Below are positions 2,346 to 5,362 of a stretch of 5,362 bases of DNA, one piece after another (position 1 is the first letter of the stretch; each line of letters opens with the position of its first letter). The stretch lies in assembly GCA_964426185.1 (NCBI GenBank), contig CAYRPF010000057.1, positions 16,553 to 21,914 of the forward strand, in the 5' to 3' direction. The position numbers and the translations under genes were made by a program. The notes beneath the pieces are model-generated. The model did no database searches, was not told the DNA's origin, and saw nothing but the letters and a program-made list of their open reading frames with translations. This stretch comes from an uncultured archaeon. Its GTDB lineage: Archaea > Asgardarchaeota > Lokiarchaeia > Sigyniarchaeales > Promethearchaeaceae.

Positions 2346-3608
2346 TTAAAAAGCACTAATTAATGCCAACAAATTCAAAACAAATAAATATAATCCCAAA
2401 ATTATGGATAACGGGAAAATAATATAATATAATGGTGTTTTAAATGGTCTTTCCAGTATCGGCATTTTGATTCTAAGATATAGAGCAATAACACCGGCTG
2501 GAATCATCGCAGATAATAAGATAAGTCCCAGACCGATATAGGAGAAGATATCTATTATTGTTCCGCCCATTTTTGAAAACAAGAGCACCATAACTAATCC
2601 GAAAATTCCACTAATTATTACAGTTAAAGTTGAATTGTAAATGTGGATTCTTTTTTTCGTTTCTGCAAATATCTTATGTAAGCTTTCACCTTCGGCGAGC
2701 ACTTTTAATTGATGGGTTAAGGTAATGAAAATCGCAAAAGCGGTACCTAAGGCAGAAAATGATTTCAACCCAGAGAGAAGAGCACTTGGCACACCATAGT
2801 TTGCTTCAATAAAGGCAAAGAAATCAGGATCAGTGTCGGATAATATCCCTTGAGGAATTATCATACCGGCGCTGATTATTACAAAGATGTATATTATAAT
2901 TATTGCACTCAGCACCATCAAAATTCCGCGAGGTAAAAGTTTTTCTGGTTCTTTTTCTTCTTTTTTCAGTTTTAAATCACCGCTGAAAACTAACAGAACT
3001 TCGAAACCCATTAACGCCCATAAAGAGCTGTTTCCAATAGAGATAAACATTTCACCCGTAAAAGTAGAAGTATTAAGATTTGCACCATTTCCTTTAATTA
3101 TAAAGAATAAGGAAATTATCAGAAGTGATAAAACTTTTAGGCAAATCCAGATGCTGATTGTCCAACCAATTATTCTTAAAGGTATTGCTTCTACTACAAA
3201 TGCAAGTATTATTATAACTAAAACCGTGAGAATTATCAAAAGTGCAAAGGAATCAACACCTATCATTTCCAAAAATGATGATACTGAAACAAATACTAAA
3301 ATTGCTCCAATTATGGTATATCCAAAATAGTAGACGAAACCTAGAATGCTACCCCATTTTTTATTAATTGCGCCGCTTACATAAGAATAAGGTCCACCAC
3401 TTTTGGGGAACATGCCTACAACTTCAGCATATGCCAAACCTGCCGTGAAAAAAAGCATCCAGCTGATAACTATTACAAGAATTGAGTATGATCCAGCTGT
3501 ATTAACCCAAGAAAATGGATCGCCCCAAACCCCGCTTCCAATTACAGTAGTAAGCCCTAAGCTCAAGATACCAATAATTCCAATTTTTGAATTAGTGTTC
3601 TCCCTCAT
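2346..3608 (-). CDS. APC-superfamily amino acid permease (about 420 aa; alternative TTG start at 3641 gives 431 aa)
   Basis: Highly hydrophobic with about 11-12 TM segments. TM1 unwound motif TTVIGSGVW, loop YAEVVGMFPKSGGPYSYV (cf. YAEL...P.sGG.Y.Y), TM6 WALMGFE, C-terminal LRIKMPILERPFKTP (cf. LR...P...RPF+.P). ATG 3608 is preferred because a TATAAAA at 3655-3649 lies too close to TTG 3641 to serve it. Confidence 0.9.
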   Translation of the reverse strand: MRENTNSKIGIIGILSLGLTTVIGSGVWGDPFSWVNTAGSYSILVIVISWMLFFTAGLAYAEVVGMFPKSGGPYSYVSGAINKKWGSILGFVYYFGYTIIGAILVFVSVSSFLEMIGVDSFALLIILTVLVIIILAFVVEAIPLRIIGWTISIWICLKVLSLLIISLFFIIKGNGANLNTSTFTGEMFISIGNSSLWALMGFEVLLVFSGDLKLKKEEKEPEKLLPRGILMVLSAIIIIYIFVIISAGMIIPQGILSDTDPDFFAFIEANYGVPSALLSGLKSFSALGTAFAIFITLTHQLKVLAEGESLHKIFAETKKRIHIYNSTLTVIISGIFGLVMVLLFSKMGGTIIDIFSYIGLGLILLSAMIPAGVIALYLRIKMPILERPFKTPLYYIIFPLSIILGLYLFVLNLLALISAF

Positions 3609-3648
3609 AAATGATCGATCCCTAAAAGCAAAATAACTCAAATTTTAC

Positions 3649-3710: not shown

Positions 3711-5360
3711 TTAAATCATTTGAATAGTTACATTGTACTGCTTTACTTGCAAATTTTCATTTTTTACTGCATTCATTGATGGGTTGCTATTTAGTGTGGC
3801 CTTGTGCCCAATCGCAGTAAAAACTACCTCGCTATAGTTTTTTAATTCCATTTCCTGTAGTGTTTTAGACTCTGTTTTTCCCTTCTCAAAAAGGGGATTA
3901 TAGACAAATTGCTTGGTTAAGGGATTTGTAATGATAAACGATTTTCGATTTACTGTTGGAAAATAGTCCCTTACTGCTTTAAAAAGATCTAAAACTGTTG
4001 CATCAGAGGAGACTACTACTGTAATATTTTCCTGTCCTTGTTTAGATCCGCATGCAACACAATCTTCTAGCCTAGAAATTTCAACTGGTTCGAACAACCC
4101 GAAAACCCCGTTATAATTAATATATGGAGGATTCATGATATTACCAATAGAGTGATCGTTCATTAAGAAGAGGATTTTCAAGATTTCTTGAGATTGAATG
4201 GAAGAAATAATCGAACTTACACTTTGAATTGCAGGGATTTTATTTCCTAAAATATTTTCCATATCTTCTAAAGCAAAATCTTCCCCGAAAGTGGTTAAGA
4301 TATTCTGCTTGATTTCTTGCAACGATTCTTTAGAGATTGTGTTCTTCATTTCTGGAGGTATAGATTCATCTAAAACCCTTTGCCGTAGATTTTCTAACTC
4401 TTTCTGAGCATATATCAGCGTTTCTTGCATATCTTGGGGATTGTTATAATCTGGTTTTCGATCATATTTTTTAATAAAGTGTACTTCTCCTTTAATCGCA
4501 CAGTGTTCACGTGTACGCGGAATTCCCTTAAGCGTGCAGGCCGCAACTTGATTTCGAAGTGGAGGTGGTACTGGAACCACGCAACGATAACATGGTGTGT
4601 GATGCATGTATTTTGATTCATATTCATCGAAATGATTTTCAATTTTTTCTCGGATTTGTTGCCGAACTGGTGTGATATATTTCTTCTCCAGAGATTCAAT
4701 TTCCTCCTGCAGTTCTGCTATCCGTGATTGTGCAGAAAAATATTCGGGAAATTGGGATTCATCTAAAATCCATAATTGCTCATCTACCAAACGATCCATT
4801 ATACTGGTCTTTGATCCAACAGGAAATGCTTTTCCACTCTTAGTTCGGGTTGATTCGGGAATTATTACTTGAACATGACCTTCAAATCCTACGGTACCTC
4901 CTTCAATCAAGGGAATTCCTAATTTTAGGCAGAACTTGTTCAGATCCATACGTGCTTGCACATTATCCAAAGCTGCTACCACGGCATCGCATTCCATATA
5001 TTTTGTCATGGGGATTTGTTGGAGTGGAATAGTGAAAACTTCCACTTCTAGGAATGGATTCATTTTTTTAAGGCGTTCAGCGGCGACTTCTGCTTTAAAT
5101 CTGCCTTCATCTCCACGATAAAATAACATCTGTCGTGAGAGATTACTGGTTTCTATTGTATCCATATCACAGAGAATTAACTTTCCAATCCCCATTAAAG
5201 CCAAATCCTTGGCAATCTCACACCCTAAAGCACCCACCCCCGCGATAAAAACGGTGCTCTGCTTTACAACGATCTGATTCCATCCTGGAAGTAGTTTTTG
5301 GCGTTTAGCACGTTCAATTTCTTCAGAAGTGAGCGTCGTTTCTATTTTTTTTTTTTTTTT
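3711..5360 (-). CDS. Ubiquitin-like protein activating enzyme E1 (ThiF/MoeB/E1 family, Uba3/Uba2-like architecture); 5' end runs to the window edge
   Basis: The frame stays open upstream of the tracked GTG (5237): ...IETTLTSEEIERAKRQKLLPGWNQIVVKQSTVFIAG-VGALGCE, restoring the GxGxxG loop. Other motifs: DMDTIETSNLSRQMLF, KAEVAA, ALDNVQAR, GGTVGFEGHVQV, Zn pairs CYRC (4592-4581) and CVAC (4061-4050), catalytic CTLKGIPRTREHC (Cys at 4538-4536), NKIPAI, and a C-terminal ubiquitin-fold-like region. Confidence 0.92.
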   Translation of the reverse strand, partial: KKKKKIETTLTSEEIERAKRQKLLPGWNQIVVKQSTVFIAGVGALGCEIAKDLALMGIGKLILCDMDTIETSNLSRQMLFYRGDEGRFKAEVAAERLKKMNPFLEVEVFTIPLQQIPMTKYMECDAVVAALDNVQARMDLNKFCLKLGIPLIEGGTVGFEGHVQVIIPESTRTKSGKAFPVGSKTSIMDRLVDEQLWILDESQFPEYFSAQSRIAELQEEIESLEKKYITPVRQQIREKIENHFDEYESKYMHHTPCYRCVVPVPPPLRNQVAACTLKGIPRTREHCAIKGEVHFIKKYDRKPDYNNPQDMQETLIYAQKELENLRQRVLDESIPPEMKNTISKESLQEIKQNILTTFGEDFALEDMENILGNKIPAIQSVSSIISSIQSQEILKILFLMNDHSIGNIMNPPYINYNGVFGLFEPVEISRLEDCVACGSKQGQENITVVVSSDATVLDLFKAVRDYFPTVNRKSFIITNPLTKQFVYNPLFEKGKTESKTLQEMELKNYSEVVFTAIGHKATLNSNPSMNAVKNENLQVKQYNVTIQMI

Positions 5361-5362
5361 TT
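5345..5362. repeat. T18 homopolymer at the window end
   Basis: 18 consecutive T at 5345-5362, abutting the E1 N-terminus; could be a contig-end artefact. Confidence 0.85.

Follow-up and report, generated by a model that had tools for sequence, protein, structure and literature searches.

The window analysed here is a 5,362-nt stretch of Asgard archaeal DNA that ends together with its contig (C57) and comes from a genome of 3.26 Mb (34% GC, 92% complete). Among named organisms, Promethearchaeota supply the closest relatives of the window proteins; Promethearchaeum syntrophicum and Ca. Lokiarchaeum ossiferum, each with a closed genome, belong to the same family as the window genome. An E1 gene of 544 or more codons occupies positions 3711-5360 (minus strand, as do all features of the gene given below); its reading frame stops at 3711 and stays open through the window end, the 5′ end being cut by the end of the contig, and residues are numbered from the Ile at 5345. 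The encoded protein, a conserved E1 of Promethearchaeales referred to below as E1a, shares 63% identity with the orthologues of P. syntrophicum and Ca. L. ossiferum. DNA matching the gene was found in hydrothermal-vent and marine-sediment metagenomes, no RNA data set containing it was found, and GenBank names two of the E1a orthologues (TXT58843.1, TXT55539.1) ‘putative E1-like ubiquitin activating protein’.

At the 5′ end of the gene the contig ends in a run of 18 T (5345-5362), which reads as A on the coding strand; judging from relatives, about 5-12 codons of the gene would be absent. A second assembly (GCA_054388175.1) also breaks here, at a run of 20-22 A where it folds back on itself, and sequence beyond the homopolymer was not recovered from four DNA runs. 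Homopolymers of at least 15 nt number only two in the whole genome. This tract of 18 or more A at the extreme 5′ end of the E1 gene (window 5345-5362; L218:80-172), which breaks two assemblies, could be a poly-lysine start, a leader or a length-variable tract. In the orthologue from a genome of the same genus (G001; L032, about 8480-8520), a Shine-Dalgarno-like aggaggt is followed by CTG/ATT and no ATG, which suggests a non-standard start codon; gene callers shorten the matching protein to 484 aa.

Downstream of the E1 gene, likewise on the minus strand, lie genes for an APC-family amino-acid permease (2346-3641), a glutamate dehydrogenase (847-2088), with an NCBIfam score below cut-off, and a C2H2-like zinc-finger protein (36-680). 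A functional link of the E1 to its neighbours (permease, glutamate dehydrogenase, zinc-finger and small-GTPase genes) was considered and rejected, the synteny being confined to close relatives and no ubiquitin genes being found there. The statement of the sequence-only reading that ubiquitin, E2 and JAB genes are missing downstream holds for the whole of C57, the partners residing on other contigs.

Domain architecture of the E1 protein

The ORF matches Pfam ThiF at E=8e-56, and this match together with conserved columns delimits the N-terminal part of the adenylation (ThiF/MoeB) domain (4857-5240). The adenylation residues comprise GxGxxG at 36-41, D60, N68-R71-Q72, K84, D127 and R132, and the ATP-site columns are invariant or nearly so in 110 homologues. 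All four zinc cysteines are invariant across the same number of sequences, namely C252 and C255 of the first CxxC (4581-4592) and C429 and C432 of the second, which lies in the C-terminal part of the domain (4050-4244). Seven motifs had been quoted as resembling human UBA3; all of them are present and, in a global alignment against database UBA3 proteins, stand in register with real UBA3 sequences: GGTVGFEGHVQVIIP (4901-4857), TPCYRC (4598-4581), CTLKGIPRTREHC (4538-4500), DYNNPQDM (4451-4428), NKIPAIQSVSSIIS (4244-4203), YNGVFGL (4115-4095) with RLEDCVAC (4073-4050), and SKTLQEMEL (3869-3843).

Arg15 (5301-5303), at least 90% conserved, is the equivalent of the arginine finger Arg14 of E. coli MoeB, and the corresponding RQ/RH motif was found in 108 of the 108 scorable members of the E1 family versus none of 112 UBA3 proteins. 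In eukaryotic E1s the arginine finger is supplied by the inactive subunit or domain, whereas in archaeal E1a it belongs to the same chain. A separate inactive E1 partner subunit was found neither in the genome (92% complete) nor, outside the family that includes Ca. Sigynarchaeum springense (f4), among 151 genomes of the order. Since the arginine finger is kept in cis and no dead partner subunit was found, a homodimer is the most likely form, and E1a probably works, like MoeB, as a homodimer with two active sites.

Cys270 (4536-4538), at the end of the crossover loop, is the predicted catalytic cysteine, as had been proposed from the letters; it aligns with the CTI motif of UBA3 and is invariant in 110 homologous sequences. 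A cysteine at this position alone proves nothing, because E. coli MoeB and ThiF also have one, 12 residues past the first CxxC. Cys270 stands at the start of a helical catalytic-cysteine domain (residues 270-368; 4242-4538) with modelled helices at 279-294, 303-328, 339-353 and 359-368. In a profile-profile comparison (hhalign), the segment resembles UBA3 at E=1.8e-4 (reversed-sequence control, 0.21), the likeness being confined to the first 54 columns with little signal further on. The Helarchaeal orthologue has a Cys domain shorter by about 30 aa (146 versus 177 aa from CxxC to CxxC). In the AlphaFold model of the E1 (mean pLDDT 78), the adenylation fold is accompanied by the helical Cys domain, an inserted helical region (164-249) and, at the C-terminus, an alpha/beta domain; confidence is low for residues 259-276, which cover the crossover loop and Cys. 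By analogy, we infer that a thioester forms at Cys270.

Residues 434-544 (3714-4046) form a predicted E2-recruiting ubiquitin-fold domain (UFD). Because the Pfam models E2_bind, UAE_UbL and SCCH gave no match to the E1, just Ubiquitin_4 appearing at E=0.04, fold comparison was needed here. Folded alone, the C-terminal 111 residues adopt a beta-grasp (pLDDT 84.5), for which the first seven ranks among 48,161 PDB representatives (VIA) all went to UFDs of SAE2/UBA2 and UBA3 (Z 11.0-9.1, 82-90 aligned residues), the best being those of SAE2 (Z 11.0, rmsd 2.3, 88 aligned) and UBA3 (Z 10.4, rmsd 2.7, 89 aligned); free ubiquitin reached a Z of at most 8.5 over about 66 aligned residues. The top 40 Foldseek matches were likewise all E1 UFDs, and the profile-profile comparison with the UBA3 C-terminal domain gave E=1e-3 (reversed-sequence controls, about 0.2). 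With the whole chain, the best Foldseek match was UBA3 (2nvu_B, E=3.5e-25 over 545 columns), followed by UBA6 and SAE2. The sequence-only reading had staked its case on a C-terminal E2-recruiting beta-grasp, and the predicted model bears out the beta-grasp, being nearest to E1 UFDs; of the HMM matches it had anticipated, that to ThiF was obtained and those to the E2_bind/UFD models were not. Complex prediction for the E1 (residues 8-544) with the E2 encoded on contig C85 returned a score of 0.00 (mark 0.32), which weighs neither for nor against the pairing.

Partner genes and phylogenetic position

A single canonical E2 (C85:66-611), recognised by its HPN motif and Cys and by a UQ_con match at E=2.5e-24, is encoded in the genome alongside one ubiquitin ending in GG-N (C28:4211-4462; E=7e-9); JAB gave three matches and RING weak ones (best E=2e-5), so that the genome search suggested with the original reading located all four kinds of partner, each away from C57. 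Within the family of the window genome, the genes for E1, E2 and ubiquitin are not linked, with more than 1 Mb between them in three closed genomes; the assignment of partners therefore rests on relatives. An orthologue of the E2 (about 70% identical) is found within 12 kb of E1a in 14 of the 19 family f3 genomes and on a separate contig in the other five, counts that come from kin and not from independent samples, and it also lies within that distance of E1a in the family f2 genome. At a Helarchaeote locus (L008), E1a is followed by the E2 orthologue as the next gene and then by a JAB-like gene, and in Sigynarchaeum-type loci an orthologue of the ubiquitin (about 78% identical) lies within about 1.5 kb of E1a. 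The cargo of E1a is not certain, because the genome encodes several other GG-ended small proteins.

Further genes of related families are present. The genome contains a separate 273-aa ThiF among TusA/IscS genes (sulfur transfer) and two further ThiF-family genes in separate JAB-containing operons. Of two further ubiquitin-like operons, one (C37:20315-23592, L002) encodes a 283-aa E1, a JAB and neighbouring genes; the other (C123:1304-4811, L004), a Ubl(GG)-E2-JAB-E1 cluster, adjoins a SIR2-like gene. Most relatives carry a second E1 paralogue (E1b) of about 411-426 aa, devoid of the insert and encoded in an operon with a second E2 and a Ubl-like gene whose product ends in STAG-x rather than GG (L033:4886-7146, L034:4960-7224, L035, L036); E1b was not found in the window genome (92% complete). 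Elsewhere, a JAB/MPN gene adjoins a TBP gene (L037:895-1881), and an RPA-like OB-fold gene is preceded by a small RING-like gene (L041:1135-1680).

In a 38-row tree of the E1 core, from which the insert was removed and which included three outgroup rows (MoeB/ThiF) and no UBA2, the window protein is placed within the clade of Loki E1a, beside Helarchaeal E1a, and MoeB/ThiF occupy their own side of a 100/99 branch. Grouping with the sulfur-transfer enzymes, which the sequence-only reading had named as an outcome that would speak against it, was not seen in this tree, although the AU test did not reject a tree with MoeB/ThiF attached on the E1a branch. UBA3 and UBA1 form a clade at 100/98, the archaeal sister of which is not fixed by the tree: E1a as sister of UBA3 was rejected (AU test, p=0.0006), E1a with its close archaeal relatives as sister of UBA1+UBA3 was neither supported nor rejected (p=0.084), and attachment of MoeB/ThiF on the E1a branch gave p=0.196, a value that is based on three outgroup rows and reflects an uncertain root. 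The label ‘Uba3/Uba2-type’ consequently stands for the layout and falls for UBA3 orthology, UBA2 being absent from the tree. E1s that have the Cys domain and the C-terminal domain but not the insert occur widely across Asgard archaea and Caldarchaeales and in some Thermoplasmata. E1s of Thermoplasmata/Methanomassiliicoccales MAGs (L183, L184, L188) branch inside the Asgard E1a group (93/92), possibly owing to transfer or mis-binning.

Proposed mechanism and alternative explanations

We consider the gene, with a probability of about 0.88, to encode the enzyme that activates ubiquitin in the main, eukaryote-like pathway of Promethearchaeales, working as outlined below. The protein combines an intact adenylation site and two zinc CxxC motifs with a conserved cysteine placed after the crossover loop inside a separate helical domain, as in canonical-type archaeal E1s, and with a UFD in the predicted model, its partner genes (weak for RING) being present in the genome or linked. 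The original proposal of a canonical-type E1 in an archaeal E1-E2-E3 cascade is supported by the UFD fold, the placement in the Asgard E1 clade and the partner genes elsewhere in the genome. By comparison with C. subterraneum, a JAB protease would trim the final Asn off the GG-N ubiquitin precursor (C28:4211-4462). Two identical E1 chains, in which the residues concerned are present, would then pair in the manner of MoeB, each lending Arg15 to the ATP site of the other, and adenylate the ubiquitin C-terminus; Cys270 would attack the adenylate to yield the thioester. The C-terminal UFD, a fold taken from the prediction, would recruit the E2 of C85:66-611, the partner indicated by linkage in relatives, ubiquitin would pass to the E2 cysteine, and RING proteins would presumably hand it to substrates. 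The chemistry underlying this scheme (adenylation, thioester formation, E2 recruitment by the UFD and transthiolation) is established (PMC12355090, PMC5654768), and conjugation of ubiquitin has been achieved in vitro with related archaeal E1s (PMC5654768; 10.1101/2023.07.25.550441). A literature search that covered mostly papers available without subscription retrieved neither a structure nor an assay for any Lokiarchaeal E1, and no biochemical assay was found for the E1a orthologous group.

It is very improbable that the E1 instead adenylates its tag without a thioester at Cys270, whether in a sulfur transfer like that of MoeB/ThiF or with the E2 attacking the adenylate directly. E. coli MoeB and ThiF and archaeal UbaA/ELSA do share with E1a the adenylation fold (Z 27, rmsd 2.0 to MoeB), the zinc site, the arginine finger in cis and the probable homodimer, and the MoeB and ThiF cysteine 12 residues past the first CxxC would fit such a reading; against this, they are proteins of about 250-270 aa that possess neither the 99-aa Cys domain nor the UFD nor an E2, a difference already pointed out from the sequence and confirmed by the comparison, and the NCBIfam models for MoeB/ThiF/UbaA all score the E1 far below cut-off. 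The attachment of MoeB/ThiF on the E1a branch (p=0.196), though about where the outgroup joins, has to be set against the 100/99 branch that keeps them on their own side. Although no E1 Cys mutant is among those listed for C. subterraneum, the linkage seen in relatives is to E2 and ubiquitin and not to sulfur genes, and the genome already has a separate sulfur-type ThiF. Still harder to sustain, and in our view extremely unlikely, is that the E1 is a true orthologue of UBA3 (or UBA2) that forms a heterodimer with an inactive partner as APPBP1-UBA3 does. Human UBA3 (the NEDD8 E1) and SAE2/UBA2 (the SUMO E1) agree with it in domain order, the two zinc CxxC, the CT..P..HC motif and the UFD fold, its motifs match those of UBA3, and a dead adenylation domain is indeed employed, as a fusion in cis, by Sigynarchaeum relatives. 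However, a clade of E1a and UBA3 was rejected (p=0.0006), UBA3 being held together with UBA1 at 100/98; the arginine finger, absent from all 112 UBA3 counted and left there to a separate subunit, is in cis in E1a; and the inactive partner (APPBP1 or SAE1) that UBA3 and UBA2 require was not found here, nor in any of the 151 genomes of the order other than those of family f4. UBA3 and UBA2 also lack the insert, and UBA3, the one tested, is not sister to E1a.

The ubiquitin-activating E1a of the preferred reading carries a charged helical insert of 86 aa (residues 164-249; 4599-4856) between the first two motifs, which the sequence-only reading, as with the longer Cys domain, does not mention and for which no homologue was detected; its modelled helices span 179-246 (pLDDT about 58-83). 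The insert is present in 109 of the 110 aligned homologues, the exception being the Helarchaeal one; full-length matches that include it came only from families f1-f3 of one order, and it is missing from the sampled Helarchaeal, Thermoplasmata, Caldarchaeal and other Asgard E1s. Because close orthologues do without it, the insert would not be needed for the basic chemistry, and this, together with the lack of detectable homology, leads us to read it as probably a lineage-restricted helical addition that may brace the dimer or offer a contact surface for ubiquitin or E2. In a phmmer alignment, it sits at the point where UBA1 inserts the FCCH into its inactive domain (for the eukaryotic layout, see PMC12355090), so that in a homodimer it would probably flank the Cys domain of the other subunit and the bound ubiquitin. 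That it is a relic of an ancestral domain behind the eukaryotic FCCH/APPBP1 insertion, as this shared point of the fold might suggest, is improbable given its restriction to f1-f3 and the lack of similarity to the UBA1 FCCH/4HB profile (E=0.66) or to any PDB chain (best E=0.1 in the sequence search, by which APPBP1 was compared); nor was a significant match obtained in PDB, Pfam or ESM Atlas (best 0.81). No paper describing the insert was found.

Relation to known E1s and implications

The three-part layout of archaeal E1s, Lokiarchaeal ones included, has been in print since 2014-2017. The C-terminal ubiquitin-like domain, formerly held to be restricted to eukaryotes, was listed for Loki and Heimdall E1s by Hennell James et al. 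(2017; PMC5654768, Suppl. Note 4 and Suppl. Table 2), who modelled the E1 of Ca. Caldarchaeum (Caldiarchaeum) subterraneum (CSUB_C1476) on UBA3 and reconstituted the cascade. Like E1a, CSUB_C1476 is a single chain with adenylation, Cys and C-terminal ubiquitin-like domains (PMC5654768), its Cys lying 15 residues past the first CxxC, and E1s of C. subterraneum in GTDB show 43-48% identity to E1a over the adenylation part; unlike E1a, it has about 400 aa, no insert, a different Cys-domain sequence and a position in a separate clade, and it belongs to a Ub-E1-E2-RING-Rpn11 operon. The Asgard cluster I/II E1s (Lokiarchaeum KKK43157, Loki CR_4 OLS16232, Heimdall LC_2/LC_3; PMC5654768, Suppl. Table 2) share both layout and phylum with E1a, although these accessions could be either paralogue. 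By contrast, the Helarchaeal E1 from which an Asgard cascade has been reconstituted (10.1101/2023.07.25.550441) is the paralogue of an ESCRT-linked operon, with a ubiquitin ending in GG-SPKN, and falls outside the E1a group. E1a is, accordingly, a correctly identified further archaeal E1 of canonical type, with an insert that was not found in papers.

In family f4, the E1a orthologue is a fusion of 730-800 aa in all four genomes, one of them that of Ca. Sigynarchaeum springense; the loci are L028:1613-4555, L029:7489-9867, L030:2-2470, L031:2427-4625, L216 and L220:1291-3693 (P0121), and the ubiquitin gene lies nearby in three of them. Its N-terminal degenerate ThiF domain keeps the arginine finger and is devoid of NLSRQ, the zinc site and the Cys; the second part is a live adenylation-Cys-UFD unit with neither arginine finger nor insert. 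No such dead-plus-live fusion occurs outside family f4 among the 151 genomes searched, and no paper on it was found. Fusions of a dead and a live adenylation domain are known from bacterial BilD. The Sigynarchaeum protein shares with UBA1 the layout of dead and live adenylation domains in one chain; yet, because the live unit falls with Loki E1a and its placement with UBA1 was rejected (AU p=0.022), the likeness is probably convergent, as far as the trees tell. Relative to the insert-bearing E1a, the live unit was placed with support of 77/47, and a quick tree nested Sigynarchaeum inside at 87; Sigynarchaeum may either have lost the insert or never have had it. It is conceivable, though we incline against it, that Promethearchaeales E1a re-runs the history of eukaryotic E1s independently, with a symmetric homodimer in which the insert, working in trans, provides ubiquitin with an FCCH/APPBP1-like wall, and with a UBA1-like fusion in Sigynarchaeum in which the arginine finger has moved to the dead domain and there is no insert. 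If true, comparing this homodimer with the fusion would make it possible to test directly why asymmetry arose in eukaryotic E1s.

Both cultured Lokiarchaea possess an E1a orthologue, annotated just as ‘ThiF family’, to which a specific E2 and ubiquitin can now be assigned despite the scattering of the three genes in this family. A symmetric E1 that handles the E2 with a pair of Cys domains and a pair of UFDs would represent the presumed state that preceded the eukaryotic heterodimers.
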